This document shows, in pieces, positions 296 to 37,469 of a stretch of 64,000 nucleotides of DNA. Where the stretch lies: positions 1 through 64,000 of IMG/VR virus record IMGVR_UViG_3300027797_000001; one strand, given 5' to 3'. Below the pieces are notes generated by a model. That model saw only the letters and a program-made list of their open reading frames with translations, searched no databases and was not told where the DNA came from. The number at the start of each line of letters is the position of its first letter. The stretch's first letter is position 1. Position numbers and translations under genes: made by a program. The DNA comes from a virus.

Positions 296-298
296 ATC

Positions 299-852: not shown

Positions 853-854
853 AA

Positions 855-1313: not shown

Positions 1314-1334
1314 TTTTTTGGTTTTTTAATTGTT

Positions 1335-1556
1335 TTACTTTCTTCTGACGGACTTTCCTTCAGAATCTTTTGCAGTCTCTCCCAGATCTGTTTGTTTATT
1401 AGATTGTAATCTGGTTCTTTCTTGCGCTCTTTCATACTCTTGCCAATTATAGATGTTTAACTCTCTCATTTTCAAGAAATCAGCCAAAGTCATATCCTCT
1501 GGTATACCATTGTTATTATTCATTATTTGAATGTATGCTTCTTTCATTCTTCCCAT
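1335..1556 (-). CDS. hypothetical protein
   Basis: 73 aa ORF in operon. Confidence 0.6.
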   Translation of the reverse strand: MGRMKEAYIQIMNNNNGIPEDMTLADFLKMRELNIYNWQEYERAQERTRLQSNKQTDLGETAKDSEGKSVRRK

Positions 1557-2004: not shown

Positions 2005-2009
2005 AAATT

Positions 2010-2285
2010 TTAAATTAGTTCTAAGTCAGCTTCTTTAACTGTTTCTTTTGTTTCTTCAAGTGCCTGTGATAGTAAGTCAATAGGTAAGAATCTTTCTGCA
2101 TCATATAGCTCATAAGGAAAAGATTCAGCTGATAGCTTAACTTCCTTTAATAATACTCCAAATTTATTGTCCTGTAATCCCATTCTAACAACTCTGGTAA
2201 TAGTATATACTTCACCTTCTATAACCCATTCACTCTCAGGCACTTTACTTGGTCTATTTGAAGCATCAATACATATTGCTCTCAT
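2010..2285 (-). CDS. hypothetical protein
   Basis: 91 aa ORF in operon. Confidence 0.7.
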   Translation of the reverse strand: MRAICIDASNRPSKVPESEWVIEGEVYTITRVVRMGLQDNKFGVLLKEVKLSAESFPYELYDAERFLPIDLLSQALEETKETVKEADLELI

Positions 2286-2520
2286 ATTGTTCTACTGTTG
2301 TTTTGAGATCTAAGTTACGCAAACTCTCTGAAATTTCCAACATGGTAAGAAAATCTCCATGTTTTACTGTGCACTTTCCCATCTCATGTACAAGCAAAGC
2401 ACACTGCTCTGCCTGTGTTGGATGGTGTTCACAAAATCTTATAAGACAAGCCATTACATATCCAAATGTGTTCTGGTCATCATTATGTAGAATAATCTTA
2501 TGTGTTACATTTTCTTCCAT
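2266..2520 (-). CDS. clpS: ATP-dependent Clp protease adaptor ClpS
   Basis: IILHNDDQNTF.YV..CL...C......AEQCALLVH..GKC.VK.G, Bacteroidota-type ClpS pattern. Confidence 0.9.
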   Translation of the reverse strand: MEENVTHKIILHNDDQNTFGYVMACLIRFCEHHPTQAEQCALLVHEMGKCTVKHGDFLTMLEISESLRNLDLKTTVEQYESNMY

Positions 2521-2535
2521 ATAATAATATAGTAA

Positions 2536-3630
2536 TTATACTGGTTGTAAATTATAGTTCCGCCATGCTATCTTGCTCTGGTCAAAATCTTCTAGAGCAT
2601 CTTTAACCCATTTCTCATCTACAGTTCCTATATAGCATAGTATGTGAACAATAGCCTTATCATCTGGATTTAAGCGCAAAAGTCTTCCTATTCTTTGACT
2701 AGCCTTACGCTCATTCCCATATGCATGCATAATAATGCCTTGTTTTAAACCTGGTATGTTTACACCTTCATTTAATTGCAATACACATGAGAGCTTTGTA
2801 ATATTACCAGCCTTAAATTCTTGCAAATTTGTTTCAGAATCAGGATTATTACTATGATAACTATGTGTACACATTCTATCAGCTTGATCTTGAGTATTAG
2901 CAAATACAATACACTTGCTTGTTATACTGTTTAACAAGACTTTTGCATATTTCTCTTTGCTTGGATACTCCATCATTGCTTTCATTCTCATTACTCTAAG
3001 TATGTGAGGTTGCCCTGATGCTGTATCAATCCTTGTACCCCAATAACCATAGTTTTGCAACTCAGATGTAAGGAAACTTCCTTTCTGTGTTGAGACTTTA
3101 TAGTTTTTTGTAGTATCAAGATTAATCTCATGCACAATTACTTGATAATCATTAATAATACCCGATTCTATTGCATCATCTGCCTTAAATGTAAAAGCAA
3201 CTGGACAATATTCAGATACTATTCTACCTTTCTCAGAGTTTTTATGTTTAGGTGGAGTGCCGGTTAAACCCAGCACTCTTCCTGTAAAACTATTTAGAAA
3301 TGGTCTATGACTATCTAATAAACTATGTACTTCATCAAAATAAACTGCATCAAAGTCATTAGGATTATGTTTATTTAAGCTGAGATAAGTAGAGAAAGTA
3401 GCATTTTCTAATACTTTACTTAATCCAAATTTCTCAGCTTCATATCTCCATGAACTAATGATAGACAGTTTGGGAGCAACAATCAGAATACTTTGCAATG
3501 GAGAGTAATGTTTCTCCATATGCTTTAAGCCCACAAGAGTTTTACCTACACCTGTACCCAGTACAATAGTGCATTTCTGTTTACCCTCAGTAGCTTTTAA
3601 AGCTTCATCTTGTATTTCCTGTCTTTCCAT
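2536..3630 (-). CDS. SF2 DExH-box helicase
   Basis: Walker A GTGVGKT, motif II DEVH, motif III TGT, motif VI QRIGRLLR. Confidence 0.92.
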   Translation of the reverse strand: MERQEIQDEALKATEGKQKCTIVLGTGVGKTLVGLKHMEKHYSPLQSILIVAPKLSIISSWRYEAEKFGLSKVLENATFSTYLSLNKHNPNDFDAVYFDEVHSLLDSHRPFLNSFTGRVLGLTGTPPKHKNSEKGRIVSEYCPVAFTFKADDAIESGIINDYQVIVHEINLDTTKNYKVSTQKGSFLTSELQNYGYWGTRIDTASGQPHILRVMRMKAMMEYPSKEKYAKVLLNSITSKCIVFANTQDQADRMCTHSYHSNNPDSETNLQEFKAGNITKLSCVLQLNEGVNIPGLKQGIIMHAYGNERKASQRIGRLLRLNPDDKAIVHILCYIGTVDEKWVKDALEDFDQSKIAWRNYNLQPV

Positions 3631-4373
3631 TATTTTGGTAAATTAAAGATTTTAGTTCTGATGTATGTACCAGTAGAATCTCCATCAGTTAGTAGTTTAA
3701 CTGTCTTCATATGTTTCTCAATATTAGACATAACTTTTGTGTGGTTATATGTTCCATATGCCTGCAAGAATGCTGCAAGAAACTGAAACTTAACACTTCT
3801 GTCTGACATACCAATCTTTAAGAAGATATCATTAAATGCTTTACACATTTCTTCTGCTTTTGGATTAGTAATTTGGAAATTACCAGTTTTAATAGTAGAA
3901 GTAGTATACTTAATTCCTGCATTGTTAACACCAATTGCAGCTAACATAGTTATTTCTATATCATACATGTTTTTCCATTTGAATAACTTCATATAATCTG
4001 GGCGGATCATTTTCCATGCATTGATGTAATTTATCATATCCCAAGACTTGCTTGAGTTATTTAAACAAGCCATTTTTGCAATTAAATCTTCTTCAGATTC
4101 AACAGCAATATCAATATGTGGTATTGGCAAACCTTCTCTTTCTAGTGCTGTAGCAAGATGCTGACCATCAATAATATAAGTTTTTACTTCTCCTTCAATA
4201 ACATTAGTAGTAGCTGTTACAACTGGTCTTACTACTCCCATTAATCTAATAGATGAAATCATCTTTTGTACATGTTTGCTATCAATTCCCCTATTCATAG
4301 GAAGTGTTGCAAACTTTGAATAATCATTAGTTAATTTTACTTTTAGTTCTTTTCCAATCAAATTCATAATCAT
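3630..4373 (-). CDS. ParB/Srx-like N-terminal domain protein
   Basis: NR.I...HV..M..SI...G...PV.....YIIDGQHL motif. Confidence 0.7.
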   Translation of the reverse strand: MIMNLIGKELKVKLTNDYSKFATLPMNRGIDSKHVQKMISSIRLMGVVRPVVTATTNVIEGEVKTYIIDGQHLATALEREGLPIPHIDIAVESEEDLIAKMACLNNSSKSWDMINYINAWKMIRPDYMKLFKWKNMYDIEITMLAAIGVNNAGIKYTTSTIKTGNFQITNPKAEEMCKAFNDIFLKIGMSDRSVKFQFLAAFLQAYGTYNHTKVMSNIEKHMKTVKLLTDGDSTGTYIRTKIFNLPK

Positions 4374-4383
4374 ATTTTTTAAA

Positions 4384-4794
4384 TTATTTTAAATAGCCAA
4401 GAGCCCTAGACTCTTTTGGATGTGCATGAACCCAGTCATGACAATTTCTACAAACGGCAAGCCATGTGGACTGTACCAAATAAAAAGCATCTCTATTAGC
4501 ACCAGCATATGTATGATGTACATCTGTGGCATTAATACTACAATCTTTCACTGCTATCTGACATAGACTGAAATCTGTAAGATATCTTTGTCTAAGTTTA
4601 AGATACTCTGCATCTTTCTTCTTTCGCTTAGAAGAAACCTGGGGAATTTTATAGTCAGTTGGTTTCTGTACACTGTCACTATCAATGGCTTTTTGGCAAC
4701 TCCAACAATATTTACAGTATTTAAATCCCCCATGGTTCTTCCATATAACGGTTTCTTTTCCACAACCGTCACATTCTTTAAGCTTTTGCTTCAT
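4384..4794 (-). CDS. HNH-type endonuclease with N-terminal Zn ribbon
   Basis: CxxC...CxxC N-terminus; ATDVHH...WLAVCRNCHDWVH C-terminus. Confidence 0.8.
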   Translation of the reverse strand: MKQKLKECDGCGKETVIWKNHGGFKYCKYCWSCQKAIDSDSVQKPTDYKIPQVSSKRKKKDAEYLKLRQRYLTDFSLCQIAVKDCSINATDVHHTYAGANRDAFYLVQSTWLAVCRNCHDWVHAHPKESRALGYLK

Positions 4795-5278
4795 TCTTTA
4801 GTCTTGGTAAAGTGACCGGTGCTTCCTGTAAACTTAAAAAGTTTTTAGGAAGTATACCTTCAGACATAAAGATACTGATAATATCACTCTTTCCAATGTT
4901 TAAATCTTTAAAAGTTAAAGTATTAGTATACTTCTCATCTACTTCAGAATAAGTTACCATAGCTTCTGTCCATGGACTTTTGGGAAATAAAGTTTGGAAT
5001 ATATAATTGCTGTATTGATTAGTAACTTGCTGTTTAAAAACATTAAGTACTTTCTGAGCACGCTTATATACATTTAGTATTCTTTGTTTCTTTTTGCTAC
5101 ACATTGTGTCTAGCTCTTCTTTTGTCAGCGCATTTAGGCCATACAATGCTCTTTTATACAGATAGTTTTGGTATTGAGAATACCCATCTGATTCATACTG
5201 CATATATGTTTTACCACTTTGCAACTGATAATTTCTAATTTCCTGCTTTAATTTTTCCATTTTATACATTTTTTTCAT
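4778..5278 (-). CDS. hypothetical protein
   Basis: 166 aa ORF in operon. Confidence 0.75.
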   Translation of the reverse strand: MKKMYKMEKLKQEIRNYQLQSGKTYMQYESDGYSQYQNYLYKRALYGLNALTKEELDTMCSKKKQRILNVYKRAQKVLNVFKQQVTNQYSNYIFQTLFPKSPWTEAMVTYSEVDEKYTNTLTFKDLNIGKSDIISIFMSEGILPKNFLSLQEAPVTLPRLKNEAKA

Positions 5279-5294
5279 AAATTAATAATCATAC

Positions 5295-5322
5295 AAATAA
5301 AAGGGGGCAGTTGCCCGCCCCC
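5295..5322 (-). terminator. intrinsic terminator
   Basis: GGGGGC/GCCCCC stem followed on the minus strand by TTTTATTT, just after ORF 5346-5825. Confidence 0.75.
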
Positions 5323-5345
5323 ATTTACCTAATCAACTTTATATC

Positions 5346-5825
5346 TTATAGATTAAAGTCTTGTCCTGCTGCATTTTTCAATGCTTCAGTATTTGCTCTT
5401 TGAGAATTTGCATAAGCTGCACGTAATTCTTCAACATTATCATGTTTAATAAGCATATCTTGCATACTACCATCTAAAGAAAATTTAGTTCTTCTGTAGA
5501 TAGGTAATCCACCATATGTACACACAATACCAGTTTCACCTGCTACTTTCAAATCACGCTCTGGTGTTTTCTTGTTAAATGGCTCAAGTGATTCTTCAAC
5601 CACAATTTTACCATCTAATTGCTGGCCTGCAAAGAAACCTGAAGCTTGTAAATCTGATAATAATCCAGGTACAATAGCAGATACTGATTTTCTTTTCAAG
5701 AAACCATTATCATCAATCATTGTTCTAATTTGTTCTACACGTAGATATCCCCATTCTGGATTTTCAGATACATTTACTACAGAATTTGTTGTTGCATCAG
5801 CTGTTACGATTACTTTAGAGTTCAT
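5346..5825 (-). CDS. hypothetical protein, possibly ssDNA-binding (beta-rich, tail ending DFNL)
   Basis: 159 aa; own leader and terminator; function is inference only. Confidence 0.7.
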   Translation of the reverse strand: MNSKVIVTADATTNSVVNVSENPEWGYLRVEQIRTMIDDNGFLKRKSVSAIVPGLLSDLQASGFFAGQQLDGKIVVEESLEPFNKKTPERDLKVAGETGIVCTYGGLPIYRRTKFSLDGSMQDMLIKHDNVEELRAAYANSQRANTEALKNAAGQDFNL

Positions 5826-5947
5826 CTTTCTTAATTTTAAGAGTTAATAAATAAATAAATAGATTGTTTGAGTGTAAATTTTACTATACCATTAGTTACT
5901 CAAGCTAAGTGATAAGTGTTTAGTATTGCATATCGCGATTAGCAATA

Positions 5948-6220
5948 CTAGTTATCCATTGGATCCTCTAAGTCAATGATATCATCAAATGGTAAATCAT
6001 CTGATGGTATATCATTAAGGTCATAATCTTCAAGTGGAAGAAAATCTGTATCAATATACTTTTCTCTGGTGTTTTTCTCAACAGCAGAACCGGTAAAAGG
6101 GTCTAAGATATGTTCACCATAATCTATAGACATTAAGAACTGTATATCAAGATCTGTAAGTTCTAGATATTCCTCTATGCTTAGATGCACAACCTTCCCG
6201 TTTGGTAACTGATATAACAT
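5948..6220 (-). CDS. small acidic protein
   Basis: 90 aa, very Asp/Glu-rich C-terminus. Confidence 0.75.
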   Translation of the reverse strand: MLYQLPNGKVVHLSIEEYLELTDLDIQFLMSIDYGEHILDPFTGSAVEKNTREKYIDTDFLPLEDYDLNDIPSDDLPFDDIIDLEDPMDN

Positions 6221-6301
6221 TATTTATTCTGTAGTAAAAATACGTGATAAAATCAAGTATAATTGCTTGTGCAAAATAAAATAATGTAGTATATAGCTAA
6301 C

Positions 6302-6327
6302 AATAAAAGGGGGCACTTCTACCCCCT
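6302..6327 (-). terminator. intrinsic terminator
   Basis: AGGGGG/CCCCCT stem, TTTTATT on the minus strand. Confidence 0.65.
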
Positions 6328-6377
6328 ATTATTTGGTCAGGAAAAGCATATTCGCAGGAATACACTGTCTTAAGTAT

Positions 6378-6605
6378 CTAGTCATTGTTTTTTCTATAGT
6401 CTAATATTTTGTTATATAGACCATCATTGAAATGTGTAAACCATTTTTTATTAGTAATTCTATTAATAGCTCTAGGTTTTTCATTTTTTGATATGTTAAT
6501 AGTATATTTTATACCCTGTTTAACCAATTGGTTATATTCATCTTTAACTGAAACAGCAAAGTTAAATCCCATAACAGATGTTATAAGTTTCTCATTGTAA
6601 TCCAT
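6378..6605 (-). CDS. hypothetical protein
   Basis: 75 aa ORF with TATTTATTAAC leader. Confidence 0.65.
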   Translation of the reverse strand: MDYNEKLITSVMGFNFAVSVKDEYNQLVKQGIKYTINISKNEKPRAINRITNKKWFTHFNDGLYNKILDYRKNND

Positions 6606-6630
6606 ATAAGTGATTTTAGTTAATAAATAG

Positions 6631-6704
<74 letters not shown>

Positions 6705-6711
6705 AAGAGTA

Positions 6712-6903
6712 TTACTTTTTGAGCTCTAATGTCTCATCATACTCAAAAGTTCCGGACTTAATATATTCCAGTATCTCAGCTTTATAGGCATAGTCTACAA
6801 CTTTGCCATCTTTAAAGAATAGAGCATACTGTTTATGTCCGTCCATTGTTTGTTGGTATTTGACAGTTCCTGTCATTAAGTACCATAAAAATACTATTTT
6901 CAT
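6712..6903 (-). CDS. hypothetical protein
   Basis: 63 aa ORF, overlapping start/stop with upstream gene. Confidence 0.65.
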   Translation of the reverse strand: MKIVFLWYLMTGTVKYQQTMDGHKQYALFFKDGKVVDYAYKAEILEYIKSGTFEYDETLELKK

Positions 6904-7151
6904 TTAGATAATATTAATCCGTAAATAACAAATGATACAGATGCAAATAAAAACAATGCAAGACCCCATTTGAAACCTAAGAAAATTTTCTCTTCTTCTA
7001 TTTCTCTGTCTAGTATGTCTATATCCCATATTAGATCACTTACTCTAATTATAACCACATCAGGATCTGCTCCGGACTGGTATGCAGCAATAATGAGGGA
7101 CTGTATGTCCCTCTTTTGCTCTTCTAGTTTTCTTAATTTTCTGTAAATCAT
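6900..7151 (-). CDS. small protein with C-terminal transmembrane helix
   Basis: 83 aa; coiled-coil N-terminus, hydrophobic C-terminus. Confidence 0.7.
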   Translation of the reverse strand: MIYRKLRKLEEQKRDIQSLIIAAYQSGADPDVVIIRVSDLIWDIDILDREIEEEKIFLGFKWGLALFLFASVSFVIYGLILSK

Positions 7152-7285
7152 TTGCTTACAGTTTTAGTTTCCACTTGCTTTGTCTGACCATAAGCGTCAC
7201 AGTGGTGACCGCTGGCACAACTAACAAAAGTTGCTAGTACACCAATAAATACAAACCATAATACTACAATTGCAATTGTTTTCAT
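7148..7285 (-). CDS. 45-aa lipoprotein (C-x5-CDAY), not in ORF track
   Basis: Translated by hand: MKTIAIVVLWFVFIGVLATFVSCASGHHCDAYGQTKQVETKTVSK*; lipobox-like FVSC; ATGA overlap with next gene. Confidence 0.75.
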   Translation of the reverse strand: MKTIAIVVLWFVFIGVLATFVSCASGHHCDAYGQTKQVETKTVSK

Positions 7286-7296
7286 AATCATAAATT

Positions 7297-7641
7297 TTAA
7301 AAAGGTAAATCTAAATCAACAGGCTGGATATAATTTTCCATACCTAATACACTATCTAATAGTGCTTGTTTCTGACATGCAAGTTTATGCATCTTAGCAT
7401 TAACTTGATATATTTTGAGTTTTTCAAACCATATCATGTACTTTTCACTTCCTGTTTTATTCCAACCTACAACACCTTCTATTCTATAGAGGTATGGATT
7501 CTTTCTGCTATTGCAGTACATGACATTGAAATCATATTCTTTCCTGATTTCAGCAGCATCTTCAGGTGTAAGGTTCATGTTAAGTTTAATCAGAGTGTGA
7601 CTACCAAATGAATGGTAACCAAAAGGGACAGTTTTATTCAT
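7297..7641 (-). CDS. hypothetical protein (C-terminal DLPF)
   Basis: 114 aa; ends in SSB-like acidic DLPF tail. Confidence 0.7.
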   Translation of the reverse strand: MNKTVPFGYHSFGSHTLIKLNMNLTPEDAAEIRKEYDFNVMYCNSRKNPYLYRIEGVVGWNKTGSEKYMIWFEKLKIYQVNAKMHKLACQKQALLDSVLGMENYIQPVDLDLPF

Positions 7642-7686
7642 AAGTTTATTTTTAAATTGTTAATCATAATATAAAATCATAGTCAC

Positions 7687-7969
7687 CCAGTGACAAGAAT
7701 ATATAGCTAAAGTCAAATTCAAATACTAAGTCAAAGGCCTTCTCTTCTTCAAAGGCAAATACAAATACTAAGTCTCAATGTTAGCCAATTGCATATAATG
7801 CATAACCTGTCTAACGTGGGAGTTCTATCTCAGTTTTTATAGTTTGAAGAGAAGCGGTAATTATTAGTAATTTTAATTTTATAAGTGGTATCACCACAAA
7901 CTTTATTAAAAAAATTCTTGTCACTAGATATAAAGAGTAGAGGAATCAGCTTGTGCCTATCCCCTACTC
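7687..7969 (-). ncRNA. candidate structured RNA downstream of coiled-coil gene
   Basis: Nested inverted repeats 7689-7700/7914-7925 (12 bp perfect), 7739-7747/7846-7854 (9 bp), 7935-7944/7960-7969; duplicated 13-mer CAAATACTAAGTC (7720, 7762) within 6-nt periodic tracts. Confidence 0.6.
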
Positions 7970-7985
7970 ACCTAGTATCAGTACA

Positions 7986-8897
7986 CTATTTTTCAGGTGT
8001 CATGAACAAGTCAATAACTTTCTGAAATCTAGGATCAACATTGATTCTCAATGCTGCAGCAGCTTTAACATCCAACTCTCGTTGAGCATTAAATTCCATA
8101 GTAAGTCTAAGCAACTCACCCTTGTATGCATCCATAGCAAGTCTATATTCTCTGTTAAGAGTTTCTTCAAGACTTAAGAAAGCAGCAGCCATGTCTGCAT
8201 TCTCACGCTGGATCCGTGCATTCTCATCACTAACCAAGTTTTTAACCTTAGCTTTGAAATAGTTTACACGTTGTTCATACTGACGGTGTTGCTCAGCAAT
8301 ATCCTCATGGATTTCTAATAAATCCTGAGAATTATGATGCTTAGTAATCTTAACCGGAGTCTTCTTACCATCCTCTACATTGAACCATTCAATGCTAGGC
8401 ATGTTAGATAACTCTTTTCTAAGACTAGACAACTTACCATTCTTATGGATAAATTGACCCAAGTGAGCTGCCATAGCTTCTGCTTGCAAATATTCTGAGT
8501 ATTCTGCATCAGTAAGCTTAGACCATCCCCATGATTCATCCACAGTATGAATAACATCATAGTCAGGTGCATACTCTCTCTGTGGTTCCACAAGATGAGA
8601 GAAATCAGGACGTGTGTTCTGTATTCTCTCTATCTCAGCATCTTTACCCTTGATAGCTTCCATAAGGAATGCTTGGCAAGCATGGAGATCACCCTTGAAC
8701 TTTAATTTCTCAAGGATATTATCCGGAATCACAGATGGCTCTTGCATCACATAAGACTGCTTGTCTATAACAATAGATTTACTGCAGTTGTTGTAAGATT
8801 CCAACTCACGCTGAATCTCTAAAGCATTTTGATTGCACAAGTTACTAATTGATTGTGCTTGGGACATGCTTAAACCCTTGGTAGATAAATTTCTCAT
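7986..8897 (-). CDS. 303-aa helical/coiled-coil protein of unknown function
   Basis: Long ORF with strong leader; heptad-like Glu/Ala/Leu-rich C-terminal half. Confidence 0.85.
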   Translation of the reverse strand: MRNLSTKGLSMSQAQSISNLCNQNALEIQRELESYNNCSKSIVIDKQSYVMQEPSVIPDNILEKLKFKGDLHACQAFLMEAIKGKDAEIERIQNTRPDFSHLVEPQREYAPDYDVIHTVDESWGWSKLTDAEYSEYLQAEAMAAHLGQFIHKNGKLSSLRKELSNMPSIEWFNVEDGKKTPVKITKHHNSQDLLEIHEDIAEQHRQYEQRVNYFKAKVKNLVSDENARIQRENADMAAAFLSLEETLNREYRLAMDAYKGELLRLTMEFNAQRELDVKAAAALRINVDPRFQKVIDLFMTPEK

Positions 8898-8949
8898 TGT
8901 TTTTGTTTTTGAGAGTTAATAAATAAATTGATTTTTAAGTTGATAAAGT

Positions 8950-8976
8950 GAGTAGTTTAATATCATACTCAGGATA
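8950..8976 (-). repeat. 27-nt repeat copy 1, predicted H-type pseudoknot
   Basis: Minus strand TATCCTGAGTATGATATTAAACTACTC; stems TATC/GATA and GAGTA/TACTC. Confidence 0.7.
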
Positions 8977-8991
8977 AATTTACTTGGAATA

Positions 8992-9411
8992 TTATCTATC
9001 TTCTTCAGTAAATCCTGCTGAATCAGTTTCAGGTCCATTATCAATGATAGCTTCATTAATAATTTTACCATCAACTAATCTAGAGATAGAACAAAATTCT
9101 ACATCATCATTATTTGATAAATGTTGTAGTAATTCTGCATATTCAGATTCTGTTTCTAATGAACCACATTGAGTAACAGTAGTATGGTATAATTTTAATT
9201 TATAAGCACCATAAGGATTTTTGATTTCAGATATTTCCCAATCTTGTTGTGTTAACTCAGATAATTTCTTGTCTCTGTTAACAATAGTAGCTGAATAATG
9301 ATAACCACAATTACTGCAGTTAATATATTCTTCACCTGTCTTGTAATAGAAGTCACTATATGCTTCTTGTTTGCAGTTAGGACATTCAATGTAATCAATT
9401 ACGCTTGCCAT
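8992..9411 (-). CDS. Zn-ribbon protein
   Basis: CPNC...CSNCGY at N-terminus. Confidence 0.8.
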   Translation of the reverse strand: MASVIDYIECPNCKQEAYSDFYYKTGEEYINCSNCGYHYSATIVNRDKKLSELTQQDWEISEIKNPYGAYKLKLYHTTVTQCGSLETESEYAELLQHLSNNDDVEFCSISRLVDGKIINEAIIDNGPETDSAGFTEEDR

Positions 9412-9465
9412 AATTTTAGTTTTAAGTTTAGTTTTAAGTTGATTAATAAAGTTTCTATAAGTTGT

Positions 9466-9857
9466 TTACCCCTCTGCACTCAGTTATAATATCCAATTAC
9501 ATCAATTAGTAATACTCAAAAGTATTATCTATATCAGATTTCTGGCTTATTACAACTGTCTAGCCTTGGGAAGTAGAAATGGTACATTACAAAGGCTTTA
9601 GACTAGTTAGGTCTCACTTACTTACCTTATTTCGAGGTAGCCTTATAAGCAAAGTTGTACTGTCCCCGTTACAGTTCTTTTGCAAGAGAACTGACAAGAT
9701 GACTATTCTTGTAGGAGCTTGGGCAACACGTATTTTAATTTGTACTCTCACAAGGTTGCAATCCTTGGTCATCGGTTTGTATTATCAGGAATCTAAACCC
9801 AATACCTAAGTATTATTAGTTTATCTATCTGTCTGTACCTGCTTGGATGAGAGTATA
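9466..9857 (-). ncRNA. cluster of candidate structured RNAs including a tRNA-like element
   Basis: Stems 9743-9750/9848-9855 plus 5-bp/7-nt T-like arm 9751-9767; 9672-9678/9687-9693; 9481-9490/9549-9558; no convincing minus-strand ORF. Confidence 0.5.
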
Positions 9858-9861
9858 TAAA

Positions 9862-9888
9862 GAGCAGTTTTATATCATGCTTAGGATA
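9862..9888 (-). repeat. 27-nt repeat copy 2 (variant), predicted pseudoknot
   Basis: TATCCTAAGCATGATATAAAACTGCTC; compensatory AGTA/TACT to AGCA/TGCT change. Confidence 0.7.
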
Positions 9889-9893
9889 GTTGG

Positions 9894-10016
9894 TTATCCC
9901 AACTGCTCAACAGCAATCGGGATGCCTTGCTTGTCTAATACTCTTTTAACAGTTTTACCATTAGAGTATTTAACATACTGTACAAGGTGTAAGTTACCTT
10001 GAAACATCTGAATCAT
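9894..10016 (-). CDS. 40-aa hypothetical protein, not in ORF track
   Basis: MIQMFQGNLHLVQYVKYSNGKTVKRVLDKQGIPIAVEQLG*; A-rich leader; flanked by pseudoknot copies 3 and 2. Confidence 0.55.
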   Translation of the reverse strand: MIQMFQGNLHLVQYVKYSNGKTVKRVLDKQGIPIAVEQLG

Positions 10017-10089
10017 AGTTTTAAAAATCATAGTAAATAGATTTAAGAATTAATAAATAAGTATATGATGAGTTGTTATTTTAAAACAA

Positions 10090-10116
10090 GAGTAGTTTAA
10101 TATCATACTCAGGATA
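10090..10116 (-). repeat. 27-nt repeat copy 3, predicted pseudoknot
   Basis: Identical to 8950-8976. Confidence 0.7.
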
Positions 10117-10679
10117 TGTAGCCATGCCTACCTGTTATACATGGAAGCAGAAATCTTACTGCATATCTGATTCGGTTTCCGTATGTGGTCAATCAGCTAA
10201 CCATAGGACATTAGTCCCGTAAATAAATAGACTACCCTGCAAGAGAGTAGTCTTGTTCCATAACTACCACTAATCCAACTGCCGGATGGTGGTATCTATA
10301 CACTTCCCGGAATCCCTCTTTAGTCTTTTCTTCTACAAGAGAACATAGAGGTTTATCTATAGAGAGACAATAGTCTTCTGTAAGGGTAATAGTATCTAAC
10401 ATATATATAGTTTTAGTTGGTTACTTAATAAATAGTTAGCTATATATATTTTTTATTTAATATAAATATTAAATCTAAATAATACATAGTAACTATAGTA
10501 GATAGATAGAAGAGGTGTTTAATTATCAGTTAGTTACATACACTTAATTAAACTAAAGTATACGCGCGCGTAGATAGTTATCACAGGAAAAAATATAAAA
10601 ATATAGTCTTTCAAGTGTCAATAACTATTAACTATTAACTAATTCACATAATCCTATGACCCAACCGCACTCTTATCTT

Positions 10680-10697
10680 TTTTAAATTTAGGGTTAG
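10680..10697. repeat. 18-bp direct repeat copy 1 (TTTTAAATTTAGGGTTAG)
   Basis: Identical copy at 11238-11255; both preceded by TTATC. Confidence 0.7.
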
Positions 10698-10710
10698 AAA
10701 AAAATGGGAG

Positions 10711-10750
10711 AAAGAAAAAAAAGAGAGAGTCATAAACTCTCTCTTATTTT
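10711..10750 (-). terminator. intrinsic terminator (possibly bidirectional)
   Basis: AAGAGAGAG/CTCTCTCTT stem with long T tract on the minus strand after ORF 10760-11203. Confidence 0.8.
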
Positions 10751-10759
10751 TTGCTATTC

Positions 10760-11203
10760 TTAAGAACCTACTGGATTCTTAAGATTAGCCTTTGCTTTTG
10801 GTGCAGACTCCTGTGGAGTCTCAGCATCAAATGCAGATGCCGCGGCAGAGGAAATGCCACTGCCCATTAGTTGACGAGCCTGTAGCTCCGCTACCTTGTC
10901 AGCTAATCTGGCAGAGCCTTTGCTCTCCGCAGTTTCAATAGATCCTGCAGCAGCAGTGATCTCATTGAAATCTACAAAATAACCAATACCATCGGTGAAG
11001 GTTATATTGTAGAGCCTTCCTTGGTCAAGCGGGCAAACCGCGAAGATTAAGGAAGTAGTGCCATCATCAGCAAAGCGGTGATTGGCACCTTGATAAGTTT
11101 TATACTTATCAAGTTCGGCAGGTGCACCGGTAACGGTAAACCTGGCACGGATCTTACCAGTAGCCTTGCTACGGTAAGAGTTAAGAAATTTTGCTTGTAG
11201 CAT
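10760..11203 (-). CDS. hypothetical protein, first gene of the left arm
   Basis: 147 aa, visibly higher GC than neighbours, own terminator. Confidence 0.8.
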   Translation of the reverse strand: MLQAKFLNSYRSKATGKIRARFTVTGAPAELDKYKTYQGANHRFADDGTTSLIFAVCPLDQGRLYNITFTDGIGYFVDFNEITAAAGSIETAESKGSARLADKVAELQARQLMGSGISSAAASAFDAETPQESAPKAKANLKNPVGS

Positions 11204-11237
11204 AATTTTTTAATTTAAAAGGTTAATATTATTATCC

Positions 11238-11255
11238 TTTTAAATTTAGGGTTAG
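11238..11255. repeat. 18-bp direct repeat copy 2
   Basis: TTTTAAATTTAGGGTTAG. Confidence 0.7.
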
Positions 11256-11463
11256 CAGAAGATGGAGAGTGCAGAGGCAATGACAAAGCTTTTTTCCCTA
11301 GAAAAAAATTTGTCTGAGCCTGTTAGAAGAAGGACACGTGCTGTGGAAAGACAAGGGGGGTCCCCCTCCTTGGCTTGGCCCGGGGGGTGTCTGCATAGGG
11401 GATCCATCACATCCTCTAAAATAAAATAATTTTATCCCCGTTTGGAATTTAAAAATTTAATTT

Positions 11464-11471
11464 TATATTTG
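11464..11471 (+). promoter_or_regulatory. Bacteroidota sigma-A-type -7 element (TAnnTTTG)
   Basis: TATATTTG; same element at 11538 (TACATTTG), 12942, 19866, 42794, all intergenic. Confidence 0.6.
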
Positions 11472-11472
11472 T

Positions 11473-11538
11473 CATGTTATTTTAAGGGTTAATAAATAGC
11501 ACAAAGGTCTGGAGTTGAAAGCCCAGGCCTTTGTTATT
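11473..11538 (+). ncRNA. candidate antisense sRNA
   Basis: Between TATATTTG and a 12-bp hairpin (11501-11534); body CATGTTATTTTAAGGGTTAATAAATAG is complementary to left-arm mRNA leaders. Confidence 0.4.
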
Positions 11539-11549
11539 ACATTTGTCTT

Positions 11550-11666
11550 ATGGAAAAATGGAAACTATTCTTCCTATATGTAATTAGTATATGTATAGGG
11601 TTTGCTATTGTGTCTGGGTGTAAGTCTTCCCAGAAATGTGATGCCTATAGTAAGTGTGCTAAATAA
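11550..11666 (+). CDS. 38-aa lipoprotein (C-x5-CDAY), not in ORF track
   Basis: MEKWKLFFLYVISICIGFAIVSGCKSSQKCDAYSKCAK*; lipobox-like VSGC; TACATTTG 4 nt upstream of ATG. Confidence 0.7.
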   Translation: MEKWKLFFLYVISICIGFAIVSGCKSSQKCDAYSKCAK

Positions 11667-11681
11667 TTTGTATATTAGTAT

Positions 11682-12128
11682 ATGAAGAAGATAGACATGG
11701 GCAAGTATGTCCTGCTTATTGGTAATGATGCTACTGAGATATTTGACTATTACAGGGTCCCGGAAATGCATGGTCTAAATAGAGCGGATGCTCAAGCTGA
11801 AGAAGTAGACAAGACTAAGGGCAATGGAGTTTACATATATGGGCTTACTAACTATGATCCCGCTGATAAGAAGTTAACAGGTAAAGCTCCAAACAAACCA
11901 TTCTTGTTTTTGAACATGGGTACTTTCAAGAAGTATAATCCTACAGAGAAAGCAACAGCTGTTATGCATGAAACTATGCACATGAGTATTTTACTAAACA
12001 ACTGGAATATCAAAGACAAGGAAGAAGAGGCTATTCAGTTTGCCGAAGATGAAGCAAATAAAATTATAGAGAAACTAAAGACTACCAAGGTGGAAGCACC
12101 TAAGAAAAACTTCTTCTCAAGAAAATAA
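11682..12128 (+). CDS. putative zincin metallopeptidase
   Basis: AVMHETMH (HExxH) with downstream EEE. Confidence 0.7.
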   Translation: MKKIDMGKYVLLIGNDATEIFDYYRVPEMHGLNRADAQAEEVDKTKGNGVYIYGLTNYDPADKKLTGKAPNKPFLFLNMGTFKKYNPTEKATAVMHETMHMSILLNNWNIKDKEEEAIQFAEDEANKIIEKLKTTKVEAPKKNFFSRK

Positions 12129-12760
12129 TGGCATATATTGAACACAACTTTTTTCCTCTTAAGGTATTTGTTAGGAATGAGTACATGTACCAACATACTA
12201 AAGGTCATGGAGAATTTACCCCGGGGGTCATTATATCTGTAAGATGTCTACCGGGACAAGCTGCATTGTTCCAGGTATTGTTAGAGAATGGCGTGCTACG
12301 AGATAAGTTACCATCACATGCCCTACTGACAGAGCCAAAGCTACCAGAGATTGATTTGCCATTTCACTTCTTACAGATATGGAATTGTTTCTCATATAAT
12401 TTCACTTTGATACAACTGAACTATTTAAAAGATGCTCCAGTAGAAGTATACATGAAAGACCATGAGTTCTATCCAGGTAAATACTATGCCACAATAAACT
12501 GGGGATCTAATGATATAAATACAGATATCACACTTTCAGAAGATCCAATGGAACATAAGTCACATCATATTATTCTTCTTGATAATGGGCAGATAGCTTT
12601 ACAACCAAACAATAGAATCAAATGGTCAGAGCCTAGCTTTGTTACTAAGCCTTTTCCTGAGAGACCAGATTATTTGGTGAACAAAGATTATTATAATTGC
12701 GAGGGGTTTGATAAGTGGCATACAGAAGATTCAGAAAGAATGTTTTATGATAACGAATAA
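12128..12760 (+). CDS. phage protein of unknown function
   Basis: 210 aa, translationally coupled (TAATG). Confidence 0.85.
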   Translation: MAYIEHNFFPLKVFVRNEYMYQHTKGHGEFTPGVIISVRCLPGQAALFQVLLENGVLRDKLPSHALLTEPKLPEIDLPFHFLQIWNCFSYNFTLIQLNYLKDAPVEVYMKDHEFYPGKYYATINWGSNDINTDITLSEDPMEHKSHHIILLDNGQIALQPNNRIKWSEPSFVTKPFPERPDYLVNKDYYNCEGFDKWHTEDSERMFYDNE

Positions 12761-12765
12761 TTGAG

Positions 12766-12772
12766 TATATTA
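12766..12772 (+). promoter_or_regulatory. candidate phage middle/late promoter core TATATTA
   Basis: Recurs in intergenic gaps at 11671, 14119, 27568, 35738, 40736, 42822 and on the minus strand at 2525-2531. Confidence 0.55.
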
Positions 12773-12795
12773 TATAGTACTTAATAATTTATATC

Positions 12796-12933
12796 ATGGC
12801 AAAAATAAAAGAAATATCAACTAAGATTGAAAGTCCAAAAGTATCCCGTCCAGGTGTACATGCTAAATCTAAAACTAGTAATCTAAAGTCTAGCAAAAAC
12901 TATAAAAAGTTATATAGAGGACAAGGTAAATAA
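12796..12933 (+). CDS. 45-aa basic protein ending YRGQGK, not in ORF track
   Basis: MAKIKEISTKIESPKVSRPGVHAKSKTSNLKSSKNYKKLYRGQGK*. Confidence 0.8.
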   Translation: MAKIKEISTKIESPKVSRPGVHAKSKTSNLKSSKNYKKLYRGQGK

Positions 12934-12971
12934 ATTTTGTTTATATTTGTCTATAATTAAAAATCAATACA

Positions 12972-13247
12972 ATGCAATTAAAAGGAAAAAGGATTTTGTT
13001 AAACAAACCAGAAGTAAAAGAATCTCCATTTGAATTAAGTGAATCTGACAAGATGGCTATTGAGATGGACATGAGAAAGACATGGACTAAGTTAGAAGTT
13101 TATGCTATAGGGGATGATGTAGAATCAGTAAAGGTGGGGGATAAAGTGTACATGGGAATCACTGGGCTACAAGCATCTGAAGCAGTAGAACTAGAAGATG
13201 GAGTTAAGTTAATGGTTGCTGAAAGAGACATTGCAATAATATGGTAA
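12972..13247 (+). CDS. groES: GroES/Cpn10-like co-chaperonin
   Basis: KRILL...V.AIGDDVESVKVGDKV......L.VAERDI; Cpn10 pattern with divergent mobile loop. Confidence 0.75.
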   Translation: MQLKGKRILLNKPEVKESPFELSESDKMAIEMDMRKTWTKLEVYAIGDDVESVKVGDKVYMGITGLQASEAVELEDGVKLMVAERDIAIIW

Positions 13248-13549
13248 ACTTTACAGAAGAATCAGAAGAACTGTATAGCAGTAGAATGTATACACCGTTT
13301 GATAAGATAGTATCTAAAGAGATACCATTAACAGATAGACTTGTAAATCTTGATAGGCCAGAGTATTATGGTGGAGCAGGAAATACTTATGAAGTATTTA
13401 ATGTACTAGAAGCTTGGGGATTAGATGAAGACTTTTATCTTGGTAATGTTATCAAGTATATTGTAAGAGCTGGTAAAAAAACTTCTACTAAAAAAGAAGA
13501 TTTACAAAAAGCTTTAGTATATTTACAACGAAGAATAGATAAACTATGA
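13241..13549 (+). CDS. DUF3310-like phage protein
   Basis: P.YYGG...EV......FYLGNVIKYIVRAGKK....EDLQKA.VYL. Confidence 0.85.
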   Translation: MVNFTEESEELYSSRMYTPFDKIVSKEIPLTDRLVNLDRPEYYGGAGNTYEVFNVLEAWGLDEDFYLGNVIKYIVRAGKKTSTKKEDLQKALVYLQRRIDKL

Positions 13550-13800
13550 GCGAAGAAGTAGCTTTTAAAGAAACTAAGATTTATTCTTTCGGGGATATCT
13601 TAGTTGGTTTAGACTCAGAAGAGATCACTGAGTCTGCAGAAATTATTGAACTTAAAGAAAAATTTTCTAAGATAGCTGAAGATCTTAAAGAGAATTATAA
13701 TCTTAACAGGTCTCCAGTAAAAAGTTTATTATTTGATCAGACTATAGGTGACTTGACAAGAGCTTTGCTTATGTCTGAGAAACTATTAAAAATGAAGTAA
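13546..13800 (+). CDS. small helical protein, possible Acb2/Tad1-like family
   Basis: SFGD.LVG...I..LK..F......L...  helical-hairpin pattern recalled from that family; divergent. Confidence 0.45.
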   Translation: MSEEVAFKETKIYSFGDILVGLDSEEITESAEIIELKEKFSKIAEDLKENYNLNRSPVKSLLFDQTIGDLTRALLMSEKLLKMK

Positions 13801-13991
13801 TGAGACTAGTTGCAGTTATTATTTTATTTACTGTTATTGCTATGTTATGGGCAATAGCACATATATTATACAAACCTGTGTTTGATAGAATCTCACAGAA
13901 ATATGTAATTAATGAAGATGATTTTAAACTTGCAAATATTTGTATTGCAATTATGTTAGGTCTTGCACTAGCAATTGGCCTAATACTCTAG
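13800..13991 (+). CDS. small two-TM membrane protein
   Basis: Two hydrophobic segments. Confidence 0.7.
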   Translation: MRLVAVIILFTVIAMLWAIAHILYKPVFDRISQKYVINEDDFKLANICIAIMLGLALAIGLIL

Positions 13992-14028
13992 CCTGTTTCC
14001 TTGTTTCTAGCGTACATATTACAGGTTG

Positions 14029-14059
14029 AATCCCCGGTTGCAAAGCTGGGGATTTTTTA
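14029..14059 (+). terminator. intrinsic terminator
   Basis: AATCCCCGG-TTGCAAAG-CTGGGGATT followed by T tract. Confidence 0.8.
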
Positions 14060-14166
14060 TATATTGGGATAAAGTATAAATACTTTTCTTATAAGTTTGC
14101 TATCTGAATAATTTTTATTATATTATAGATATAGTGTATACAAATTATTTATAAAAACAAAACGTC

Positions 14167-16548
14167 ATGGATATTTTAAATTTTATTTCTTGGATTAGAG
14201 GGAGACGCATAGTTACTACAGTTGACCCTAATAAAACATTATTACCAGTAGCTCTTCAAGATGAAGGAAGAGACGATGGTTATTTAACAGGTGCAATTAC
14301 AGTACAAGATTTCGCTAACCAAATTGGACAAGGTGCCCAAGGGCCACAAGGACCGACAGGACCTCAAGGGCCACAAGGCGTACAGGGTGTTCAAGGTGTT
14401 ACTGGTGTACAAGGTGCAGCTGGATCTCAAGGTCCTTTTGGACCACAAGGTGTTCAAGGCGTTCAAGGAATTCAAGGTATTGTAGGACCACTTGGTTCTA
14501 CTGGAGCCACAGGTGCTACTGGTCCTCAAGGTGTAGCAGGACCTCAAGGAATTCAAGGAGTTGCAGGTGCAGTAGGACCTGCTGGACTTAATTGGCAAAG
14601 TACATGGTCTGCATTAGGAACATATGTTATTGATGATGCAGTAGCATACGGAGGAGCATCATATTTTTGTATTACTAATGTTGGTCCAAATCCAACAACA
14701 CCAGATCTAGATCCTACAAACTGGGCTTTATTAGCTTCTCAAGGAGCAATAGGTCCTCAAGGCCCTGCAGGTATTCAAGGTCCTATAGGATTAACTGGTG
14801 CAATTGGACCTATTGGTTTGACTGGCCCTCAAGGTATACAAGGTATTACAGGATTAACAGGACCTCAAGGAGTACCTGGAACTACAGGAGCAACTGGTCT
14901 ACAAGGACCAATTGGATTAACGGGCTCAACAGGAATACAAGGACCTATTGGACCATCAGGTCCAACGGGACCACTGGGACCACAAGGAATTCAAGGCCCA
15001 GTAGGACCAGCAGGTTTAAACTGGCAGGGTGTTTGGAGTTCAGCTACAGGATATGGATTAAATGATGCGGTATCATTTGGAGGTTCATCATATTTTTGTA
15101 CTAATCCATTAGGGGTAGGTCCTTCTATCTCAGATCCATCAGTAGATACAGCTAACTGGGCTTTATTAACATCAATAGGTGCTACTGGTCCAGCAGGACC
15201 TGCGGGAGCAACAGGCCCAACAGGTTTACAAGGAGTTCCAGGTCCAACTGGTCCTACAGGTCCACTAGGAGCTACTGGAACTGCGGGAGCTATTGGCGCA
15301 ACTGGACCACAAGGTCCAGCTGGAGTGGCTGGTCCTCAAGGTCCAATCGGTCCTGCAGGATTAACATGGCAAGGAATTTGGAGCTCAGGAACACAATATT
15401 TTTTAAATGATGCTGTTTCTTTTGGTGGAGCATCTTATTTCTGTTATGTGCCAACAGTAGGACCATCTCTAAGTGATCCAACTGTAGACACTCTATCTTG
15501 GGCATTACTTGCTGCAGTTGGAGCAACAGGTCCGGCAGGCCCAGCAGGTGCTACAGGTGCTACAGGGGCACCAGGTGCAGTGGGTCCACAAGGTCTAGTA
15601 GGCCCAGTAGGTCCTGCAGGAGTAGCTGGTTCAGTAGGTCCAGCGGGTCCAACAGGTCCAACAGGTCCATCAGGTATTTCAATTTTAACTACAACTGGAA
15701 CAACTGGAGCTGCAACTTTAGTTGGATCAACTTTAAATGTACCTAACTATAGTTTACCACCACAATTTGAGTATAATAATACTAATAAAACTGTATGGTG
15801 TAATGGGTCGGGTAATAATGCAACTAATACACAGTTTGGAGAGACTGCATTATCAGCTGTAACATCTGGAAGTAATAATTCAGCTTTTGGTGAAGGTGCG
15901 TTGTCAAGTACTACAAGTGGTGCAAATAATAGTGCTATGGGTAGATTTGCTTTAAAAAATAATAACACTGGAAGTCAAAATACTGCTGTAGGAACTTTTG
16001 CGTTGGGAAGTAATACTACTGGTTTGGGTAATACAGCATTTGGTTTTCAAACCATGTCTAATAGTACAACAGCTAGTAATAACCTAGCTATGGGTTCAGC
16101 TCAAGTATTAAATTCATCATCATTAAGTGGATCATATAATATTGCAATTGGTAATAGTACTTACCAGAATCTTACAACTGGAGGTAACAACACAAGCGTT
16201 GGACATTTATCAGGTCAAATTATGACAACTGCAACCAATAATACATCTTTAGGATATACTACATTAGCTAGTAATGTTACAGGTTTAAAGAATACTGCAA
16301 TTGGATCTAGAGCAATGGCTTTTGCAACAGGTTCTAATAACACAACAATTGGTGCTGATACTGAAACTACTGTATTTAATAACTGTATTGTAATTGGTCA
16401 AGGAGCTTCTGCTACTGCAAGTGGTCAACTTGTAATTGGTAGCTCATCAACTCCAGTTGGTCCTGTAACAAATGCACCAGCAGCTCAAACTCATTACTTA
16501 CCAGTAACTATAAACGGTGTAGTATATAAATTATTATTATCAGTTTAA
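14167..16548 (+). CDS. collagen-like fibre protein with three Trp-rich modules and a YadA-head-like C-terminus
   Basis: Four Gly-X-Y tracts separated by 3x GL.WQ..WS...Y...DAV.(Y/F)GG.SYFC...WALL; C-terminal N(T/S)A.G..AL repeats. Confidence 0.88.
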
Positions 16549-16569
16549 TAACTAAATAAAACTATAATC

Positions 16570-17040
16570 ATGGATGTTTTAAATTTTATATCGTGGATTA
16601 AAGCTGGAAACTATAGAGCTCTTTTACCAATTGATGCAACTAATCTAATTGCTGTTGGATCTAAAGATCCTAATAGAGATGATAGTTACTTGCCAATGGC
16701 AATAAATGCTGCACCTTTGCAATCATTATATGATACGGATACTGTAACACAATTAACAAGTATTACAACACCAGTTACAGTAAATTCGCACAATGGAATA
16801 ATTACTACAGTATCTTCTACTCTTGCAGCAAATGCAAAAACAAGTTTCACTGTGTTTAATGATAAAGTTACTGCAACATCAAAAGTACTTCTTACAGTAC
16901 AATATGGAGGGGCAGCTGCTGGAATACCTTCTTTAATTTTAGGAGTTGTGCAAGCAGGATCTTTTGGTGTTACTATTGGAAATGGTGGAAATGCTGCATT
17001 AAACACAGCAGTAAGAATTCACTTTATGATCCTTAATTAA
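16570..17040 (+). CDS. virion protein sharing its N-terminal anchor with the collagen fibre
   Basis: MDVLNFISWIK...D..RDD.YL vs [11 protein letters not shown]...D..RDD.YL. Confidence 0.8.
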   Translation: MDVLNFISWIKAGNYRALLPIDATNLIAVGSKDPNRDDSYLPMAINAAPLQSLYDTDTVTQLTSITTPVTVNSHNGIITTVSSTLAANAKTSFTVFNDKVTATSKVLLTVQYGGAAAGIPSLILGVVQAGSFGVTIGNGGNAALNTAVRIHFMILN

Positions 17041-17050
17041 ATAAGAAACT

Positions 17051-17395
17051 ATGTCAATAGGAAATTTAAAAGACTACGGAAACAAGGGAAACAACTTTCC
17101 TTTTCAATTAAAAGTACTTGAGGGTATTCAAGCTGTTTTTAATGCATTAACTGGAACAACTAATGGTCAACAAAGAACACCTCAAATTTTATATTCTGTA
17201 GGAGTTGATAGTACACCCCTAGGAGTTTATAGCTTTTCTATTGCTAATGTAGGGGCTGCTGCCGGTTTTGTAGATGGCCAATTGTTACCAGCAGGAACAA
17301 CTATAAATTATGACGCTGGAGCTTTAAATAATACATTGGGCTCTATAGCATTTGATGCAACAGGTACAGCATTTTTAATTACTTGGATATCATAA
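17051..17395 (+). CDS. putative virion/fibre-associated protein
   Basis: 114 aa beta-rich, in structural operon. Confidence 0.75.
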   Translation: MSIGNLKDYGNKGNNFPFQLKVLEGIQAVFNALTGTTNGQQRTPQILYSVGVDSTPLGVYSFSIANVGAAAGFVDGQLLPAGTTINYDAGALNNTLGSIAFDATGTAFLITWIS

Positions 17396-17398
17396 ATA

Positions 17399-17599
17399 AT
17401 GAGTACTGAAATTTATTTACGTGGATCTGCAGCAACCACTAATGGTGTATTTGCTCAAACAGCAAACAGCACTATAATTACTAACACTACTGTTGATACA
17501 ACCATTTCTAATACATTAGATGTAACAGCGCAATGGGGCGCTGCCTCTGCAGGAAACAACATCTACTCTGACATTTTTATCTTAAATAAGACATACTAA
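17399..17599 (+). CDS. 66-aa Thr/Asn-rich protein, possibly an internally deleted structural protein
   Basis: Short beta-rich ORF between structural and lysis genes. Confidence 0.55.
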   Translation: MSTEIYLRGSAATTNGVFAQTANSTIITNTTVDTTISNTLDVTAQWGAASAGNNIYSDIFILNKTY

Positions 17600-17600
17600 A

Positions 17601-18089
17601 ATGAAAAGATTATTCTTATATTCTTTATTACTAGTATTTGTTACTTCTTGTTCATTAGAAAAAAGACTTGCTAAATACTGTCCATTGTGTACACAAAAAG
17701 ATAGTACAGTAATTATAACTCAAATTAGAGATACTACAATTAATATTCCGGGAGAAACTGTATATATAGAAGATACATTATTCTGTGATTCATTAGGTAA
17801 TGTATATGCTTCTAGACTTGCTGAAAAAGATGGAACTATTATTAAGTTACAATCAAGAGTAAGAGATAACAAATACAAAGTAATTGCTACTACAGATACT
17901 ATCTACAGAACTATAAAAGGTAACACTGTTTATAAAACTCAACTGATTACTAAAACTCAAAAGCCACAAAAAATAAAATACATCCCCGGTTGGGTCAATT
18001 TCCTAGCATGGTTGGGTGGTATATGGTTAATAATCATTATATTATATATTATATACCGTCTGATTAAAGCTCAAATACCTACAATATGA
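17601..18089 (+). CDS. putative unimolecular spanin
   Basis: Lipobox VTSC, beta-rich DT-repeat middle, C-terminal TM helix; next to holin and endolysin. Confidence 0.7.
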   Translation: MKRLFLYSLLLVFVTSCSLEKRLAKYCPLCTQKDSTVIITQIRDTTINIPGETVYIEDTLFCDSLGNVYASRLAEKDGTIIKLQSRVRDNKYKVIATTDTIYRTIKGNTVYKTQLITKTQKPQKIKYIPGWVNFLAWLGGIWLIIIILYIIYRLIKAQIPTI

Positions 18090-37445: not shown

Positions 37446-37469
37446 GGATTAAACGTTAATAAATAAATA

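Follow-up and report, generated by a model that had tools for sequence, protein, structure and literature searches.

Phage P22 sar and phage lambda OOP are non-coding antisense RNAs of about 70 nt that are made by the host polymerase from a promoter of their own and finish in a hairpin end. They pair with the leader or the end of a phage mRNA, thereby lowering its expression, and each is encoded opposite a single, fully complementary target. The c4 RNA of phages P1/P7 and the CI RNA of phage P4 expose a loop whose complement is a short box that recurs in phage leaders, and variants of this box occur among relatives. Both are cut from the same transcript that they control and have an immunity role in temperate phages. 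The PR'-tR' arrangement of lambda, the source of '6S', consists of a strong constitutive promoter with a terminator close behind it at the head of the late/structural operon. Bacteroidetes are a phylum without Shine-Dalgarno-led initiation of translation.

In the Bacteroidetes, small RNAs encoded on the chromosome include Rfp18 of Flavobacterium psychrophilum (PMC9723704) and the sRNAs of Bacteroides thetaiotaomicron (PMC7366714). Abundant early non-coding intergenic RNAs are found in phi14:2, a crAss-like phage of a flavobacterial host; these early-region RNAs are long, probably made by the virion polymerase, and share no upstream motif (doi 10.1101/2020.03.07.982082). In phi14:2 the virion polymerase transcribes the early genes, and these yielded no early promoter motif (doi 10.1101/2020.03.07.982082). 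No small regulatory RNA is described for crAss-like phages in the literature that we searched, and the crAss001 transcriptome paper mentions none.

The locus analysed here, a predicted promoter-hairpin unit at the divergence point of two gene arms, can be compared with each of these systems. As with sar and OOP, the RNA predicted from the sequence would be short and non-coding, with its own promoter and a hairpin end; the differences are that its gene lies 1.4-5.7 kb away from the candidate targets, that there are several such targets, and that the match extends over 19-21 bp. The likeness to c4 and CI lies in a small structured RNA with an exposed loop, a box that is repeated in leaders, and box variants in relatives. 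However, the unit here has a separate promoter and belongs to a virulent crAss-like phage, and the boxes of its relatives did not co-vary with any target found. As at PR'-tR', a promoter is closely followed by a terminator at an operon head, whereas no Q-like antiterminator turned up here, and most homologues have a second promoter box behind the terminator. With the Bacteroidetes sRNAs the unit shares a TAnnTTTG promoter, a short structured RNA (here a predicted one), an intrinsic terminator and targets predicted by base pairing, but it is encoded by a phage, matches no Rfam family and gave no sequence relative in 185,579 bacterial and archaeal genomes beyond chance coding matches. Finally, a predicted non-coding intergenic transcript in a crAss-like phage recalls phi14:2, from whose RNAs the present one would differ in being short and in having a host-type promoter.

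The window, by which we mean the whole stretch of DNA analysed, is the first 64 kb of a 114,922-bp freshwater virus record with 127-bp direct terminal repeats. It encodes a portal, a terminase and a major head protein of crAss type, and by its sequence the phage is crAss-like. The genome has a G+C content of about 32%, and phage GenBank records yielded no DNA match to positions 10000-18000. Leftward genes run from 11203 down to 1 and rightward genes from 11550 on, leaving a divergent gap at 11204-11549; the unit therefore sits in a divergent control region. The coordinates of its elements and of the leader boxes considered below are collected in Table 1.

Table 1. Positions of the promoter-hairpin unit, its downstream neighbours and the leader boxes in the window.
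Feature	Position	Strand	Remarks
P1 -33 element TTTG	11441..11444	+	19 nt upstream of the -7 box; conserved in near relatives, spacer varies
P1 -7 element TATATTTG	11464..11471	+	matches TAnnTTTG; Bacteroidetes sigma-A type
Predicted transcription start	11476 (+/- 2 nt)	+	inferred from F. psychrophilum sigma-A box spacing
HP1, weak AU hairpin forming the 5' arm	11476..11500	+	stem 11476-11482 with 11494-11500, loop UAAGGGUUAAU; holds the box 11480-11499
HP2, GC-rich hairpin with bulged A and near-invariant top CTGGAGTTGAAAGCCCRG	11501..11534	+	read as terminator stem
U-rich tract after HP2, TTTGTTATTACATTTGTCTT	11530..11549	+	from sequence; TTTGTTATTTTATT in relatives
Second -7 box TACATTTG, candidate promoter P2	11538..11545	+	4 nt before ATG
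38-aa ORF with lipobox-like VSGC, first rightward gene	11550..11666	+	in most relatives; absent in L114
Leader box, best candidate target	5835..5853	-	before gene 5346..5825; 21 contiguous pairs, -20.3 kcal/mol, -30..-8 from AUG
Leader box	10043..10059	-	before gene 9894..10031; 19 pairs, -16.2 kcal/mol, -30..-10
Leader box	8909..8925	-	before gene 7986..8897; -15.9 kcal/mol, -30..-6
Shorter leader box	6619..6630	-	before gene 6378..6605, directly after tRNA-Arg; -14.2 kcal/mol, -26..-4
Core-only copy TATTTATTAA	10425..10434	-	before gene 10232..10402; weak duplex, -12.0 kcal/mol

The two gene arms differ in their promoters. In the left arm (window 1-11203, minus strand) no leftward gene is preceded within 45 nt by a TAnnTTTG box of host type, and several rightward genes do have one (12949, 19873, 42801, 63074). 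A plus-strand ORF of 3,509 aa at about 84,435, outside the window, contains DFDID, the catalytic motif of crAss-like virion RNA polymerases (doi 10.1101/2020.03.07.982082), and by this motif it is a virion RNA polymerase of the crAss-like type. Since the left arm is without host-type -7 boxes and the phage encodes a DFDID polymerase, a different polymerase may make the leftward mRNAs; transcription by another polymerase fits the absence of host-type boxes, and the virion polymerase may be the one that does so. The earlier note had called the leftward genes early, and this label is reasonable on the same two grounds.

The leftward half of the divergent region contains a stretch, 11252-11430, whose G+C content is far above that of its surroundings (GGGGGG and CCCGGGGGG runs). 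This stretch has ORFs of 52-55 aa on both strands, no Rfam match and folding z values of only -1.8 and -1.3; for 11245-11440, neither strand gives a fold that clearly surpasses shuffles. G-run elements resembling it occur at the same position in five relatives (L032, L033, L036, L068, L080). In addition, a short repeat at 11212-11246 and 10680-10707 flanks the first leftward gene, and its 11212-11246 copy also matches itself reversed.

The earlier note had placed a host-type promoter at the start of the unit, and such a promoter is indeed present: TTTG-N19-TATATTTG agrees in full with the -33/-7 consensus of Bacteroidetes sigma-A. The 115-kb genome contains only three full matches to TTTG-N18-21-TAnnTTTG, this one included. 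The sigma-A box of F. psychrophilum spans -12 to -5 (PMC9723704), so that with the G at 11471 as position -5, transcription would start at about 11476. The absence of an ORF from the predicted RNA of about 60 nt was likewise confirmed, its sole plus-strand frame being ATG TTA TTT TAA (3 codons). The proposal that the RNA begins with an anti-AUG did not hold. With a start near 11476, the CAT at 11474-11476 would fall mostly outside the predicted RNA; it is not conserved in relatives, the predicted duplexes never cover an AUG, and the 'anti-AUG' is probably not transcribed. The unit is single-copy in this genome. When four freshwater metatranscriptome runs were compared with 9000-14000, the assembled contigs, which cannot show small RNAs, left 11338-11504 uncovered, and an exact RNA-library contig spanned 10731-11268.

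A strong hairpin after the promoter had also been noted, and it was recovered as HP2: the fold of 11472-11549 reaches -22.9 kcal/mol (z = -3.46), which none of 200 shuffles equalled. In the alignment of homologues, 99.1% of the HP2 cells are paired and 16 cells are changed on both sides. Covariation in HP2 is 0.283 versus 0.174 in shuffles (0/500), in an alignment fitted to the model, and RNAalifold, run independently, gave a result in agreement with this. Across the alignment the HP2 cells comprise 305 Watson-Crick pairs, 85 G.U pairs and no A.C pair. Read from the minus strand, the 85 G.U pairs would be 85 mismatches, and by these pair counts the HP2 fold is therefore a plus-strand RNA structure. 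In seven distant homologues (L093, L097, L110, L131, L036, L033 and L050) an A-tract and a stem with U6-U7 directly after it make up a textbook terminator. The U tract of this phage is interrupted (UUUGUUAUUACAUUU), and therefore termination in this phage may be partial.

HP1 has a weak folding energy, -1.5 to -4.8 kcal/mol, which is no better than that of shuffles. In near relatives 86.6% of its cells are paired and two pairs are changed on both sides, and the HP1/box region holds 15 G.U versus 3 A.C cells in the alignment. Support for HP1 thus comes from pair counts and is modest.

The top of HP2 has a counterpart in another phage contig (L120:1440-1560), where it (CTGGAGTTGAAAGCCCAG) carries a different outer stem and a U tail and ends a 295-aa gene with no promoter before it. 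Judged by this context, the hairpin top is reused there simply to terminate a gene.

The unit is retained in about 50 contigs of related phages. The gene to its right (11682-12128) has 298 relatives among viral contigs. The 18-nt hairpin core was found in 52 viral contigs, one copy each, of which two are GC-rich coding chance matches and one is the gene-end terminator of L120 just described. The hairpin core was the search pattern, so its invariance among these hits is partly by construction, and a covariance-model search did find core variants (L033, L036, L050). Every one of 28 non-redundant homologues has a TAnnTTTG -7 box, at a distance of 36-55 nt upstream of the hairpin core. The combination of promoter, about 60 nt without an ORF and hairpin is therefore not only present in this phage, as the earlier note had it, but conserved as a unit in its relatives. 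The unit precedes a different gene in L114 and is located elsewhere in the right arm in L033, L036, L037 and L050.

Among 185,579 bacterial and archaeal genomes, 70 matches to the 18-nt core were obtained, all of them chance-like and none with a longer stem and a U tail; an origin from the host is therefore not supported. Searches of the window against Rfam returned tRNA only and no family for the unit at gathering or loose thresholds (best weak matches at E about 3), and nine related loci gave none.

The 5' arm evolves fast, with at least 8 variants among close relatives. In type C relatives (L088, L099, L119) the promoter and the hairpin are kept and most of the 5' arm, including the box, is gone; the conserved function therefore probably resides in the hairpin and not in leader pairing. 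In distant homologues a core, GGTTAAWA, is semi-conserved, often inside TTTAARGGTTAAWA.

On this sequence evidence, we consider it somewhat more probable than an even chance that the locus is a discrete small-RNA gene that specifies an RNA of about 60 nt whose conserved core is a terminator hairpin with a near-invariant top. Host RNA polymerase with sigma-A would start at P1, at about 11476, and would terminate at the intrinsic terminator formed by the hairpin 11501-11534 and the U-rich tract, releasing an RNA of about 60 nt without an ORF. P2 would then start the next gene, probably without a leader. The 5' arm of the RNA would be a weak AU hairpin exposing UAAGGGUUAAU. Should the RNA exist, the near-invariance of its hairpin top would suggest that it has a specific partner.

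The same arrangement may instead be a promoter-proximal terminated leader of the rightward operon, with P1 as the promoter of that operon and the hairpin as a regulated terminator like that of lambda PR'-tR'. A phage or host factor binding the invariant hairpin top would then permit read-through, the short RNA would be a by-product, and the likeness to leftward leaders would be functionless. We regard this alternative as rather unlikely, though it is the main rival: in every case the unit heads a block of rightward genes, conservation of the hairpin top goes far beyond the needs of a plain terminator, as would suit a binding site, and type C loses the box region and neither the promoter nor the hairpin. 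L093 has a divergent gap of just 157 nt and an imperfect box (TACCTTTA) ahead of the next ATG, and P1 may therefore be the sole promoter there. However, about 29 of 33 non-redundant homologues have a second consensus TAnnTTTG box after the hairpin and ahead of the next ATG (rows read by eye), no antiterminator-like protein was found among the neighbours, and the semi-conserved GGTTAAWA of the 5' arm would be left unexplained. When the neighbour proteins were compared with PHROG and Pfam, nothing bearing on RNA binding or antitermination was found, and most neighbours are without a known family. If the unit is a regulated terminator, it marks a control point of the rightward operon.

In most relatives P2 itself has no correctly spaced -33 box. 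This genome shows the order of terminator and then promoter again at 42.8 kb. If the box occupies -12 to -5, the gap of only 4 nt between it and the ATG predicts that transcription from P2 starts on the A of the ATG (11550) and thus gives a leaderless mRNA. The exact 4-nt spacing between box and ATG is found at two genes, the 38-aa lipoprotein ORF (11538-11552) and a 975-aa ORF (63067-63081), for which a leaderless mRNA is predicted too; the spacing is kept in most relatives.

We now turn to the likeness between the 5' arm and the leaders of leftward genes. The box repeats that the earlier note had seen upstream of minus-strand genes are all in place, the copy at 5835-5853 being 18/19 identical, and an additional core copy was found at 10425-10434. 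Read on the minus strand, the copies have the form TATTTATTAAC(Y)CTTAAAA. The box 17-mer has five matches at three or fewer mismatches versus 1.22 expected. Hits of the box fall on one strand only (7 vs 0). Six of the 11 exact TATTTATTAA cores of the genome fall within 5853-11498 (5.7 kb), all six in minus sense. Of these six clustered cores, five precede called minus-strand gene starts by 13-22 nt; the remaining one is the box of the unit itself, 13 nt before the ATG of an 8-codon minus-strand ORF. A further copy, 37449-37465, is located next to a terminator where a gene ends and probably represents an AT-rich chance match. An RNA-library contig of a relative runs through the leader box at 10032, which weakly suggests that the leader box is transcribed.

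The left arms of relatives (e.g. L130, L134, L090, L115) have a second junction form, TTAAAAY-TATTTATT-ATG, in many leftward genes, in which the TATTTATT core abuts the start codon; the TATTTATT core and the TTAAAA block appear as modules of the relatives' leaders. In the window, an element of about 27 nt, ATCCTGAGTATGATATTAAACTACTC, is common to 8950-8985 and 10085-10119 on the minus strand, 19-26 nt upstream of two leader boxes and behind the preceding genes.

Pairing was assessed by duplex folding of the 5' arm against start regions only, those of 18 leftward ORFs, with dinucleotide shuffles as the null; an ungapped complementarity score was also used across relatives. In this phage the best duplexes reach -22.8, -18.3 and -16.9 kcal/mol versus -14.2 +/- 2.0 in shuffles, none of 100 shuffles being as good, and duplexes with rightward start regions reach only -12.3 kcal/mol. 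The GGG of the RNA faces CTC, TTC or CCC in the leaders, and therefore G.U pairs would tolerate the leader variants. Towards the gene start the predicted duplexes stop at -8 to -4; they overlap the upstream portion of the ribosome footprint and never the AUG.

Among relatives with a like box (type A and L090), three of the four tested resemble the window; L112 and L090 each had 0/100 shuffles as good and L094 was marginal (7/100), so that pairing beats shuffles at 0/100 only in the window, L112 and L090. Among the 16 relatives with a differing 5' arm, 15 form duplexes with the leaders of their own leftward genes that do not surpass shuffles; the remaining one, L131, is marginal (3/100). The 15 include L115, whose box is one base off that of the window. 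In G001-G003 (two complete relatives and one that is 75%-complete) the relative's own box is single-copy, and the loci of distant homologues contain no sites complementary to their conserved 5' core. The proposed pairing with several early leaders thus stands for this phage, where it exceeds an AT-matched null (0/100), but most relatives are without a match. The shut-off proposed in the earlier note is not supported as a conserved function: the 5' arm varies fast, the 15 differing relatives do not pair better than shuffles, and the box is single-copy or, in type C, lost. As judged from these comparisons, the antisense match to leaders is not a property of the unit's family.

The box at 11480-11499 might also be a DNA-level copy of the leftward upstream element, the plus-strand RNA being irrelevant to it; the element could be a virion-polymerase promoter, the binding site of a regulator, or the leader of the 8-codon minus-strand ORF. 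In favour of such an element, the copies are all direct repeats on a single strand, with six exact cores in 5.7 kb of which five precede called gene starts, and the leader motif persists in relatives whatever their sRNA type. Several observations make this explanation improbable. The G.U pairs of the box region fit the plus strand (15 G.U vs 3 A.C), relatives show variation or deletion of the box between a promoter and a hairpin that are both retained, and distant homologues preserve GGTTAAWA in loci that contain no further copy. Neither the 8-codon ORF nor its ATG is conserved, and for this reason the ORF was rejected as an explanation. A chance likeness in AT-rich, TTAA-rich sequence, for which the partial self-complementarity of TTAA-N3-TTAA, the genomic G+C of about 32% and the plainly AT-rich gene-end stretch at 37449 would speak, is very improbable, as 0/100 shuffles reach five box matches, 0/100 dinucleotide shuffles reach the observed duplex energy, and the matches are all on one strand.

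Returning to the small-RNA reading, in this phage and its closest kin the 5' arm would form duplexes of 19-21 bp with the shared box UAUUUAUUAACYCUUAAAA, which three or four leftward mRNAs carry at -30 to -8 (5346..5825, 9894..10031, 7986..8897 and perhaps 6378..6605). Pairing at the box would lower the translation or the stability of those mRNAs. That such pairing works as regulation in this phage is possible but doubtful on the sequence comparisons above. The full scenario, in which a small RNA made by the host polymerase would silence several virion-polymerase mRNAs through one leader box as part of an early-to-middle switch, with lineage-specific 5' arms on one hairpin scaffold, is unlikely as a whole. 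If the pairing works, the RNA would be a trans-acting, multi-target phage antisense RNA in Bacteroidetes. The locus, at the divergence of the two gene arms, offers a putative RNA unit that is compact, conserved and amenable to testing, together with a natural series of 5'-arm variants on one scaffold.

Relatives carry more short units in which a promoter is followed by about 50 nt and a U-tailed hairpin, the hairpins being different. Such units were seen at L036:3159-3257, L037:4770-4867 and L068:4793-4892, at L044:4858-4942 (also in L059, L035 and L052), and at L069:3272-3368 and L032:3584-3677. By their sequence, these phages may hold several families of small RNAs or attenuators. Some of the promoters of these extra units are bracketed by inverted repeats, GTCACA ... 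TGTGAC, which are operator-like.
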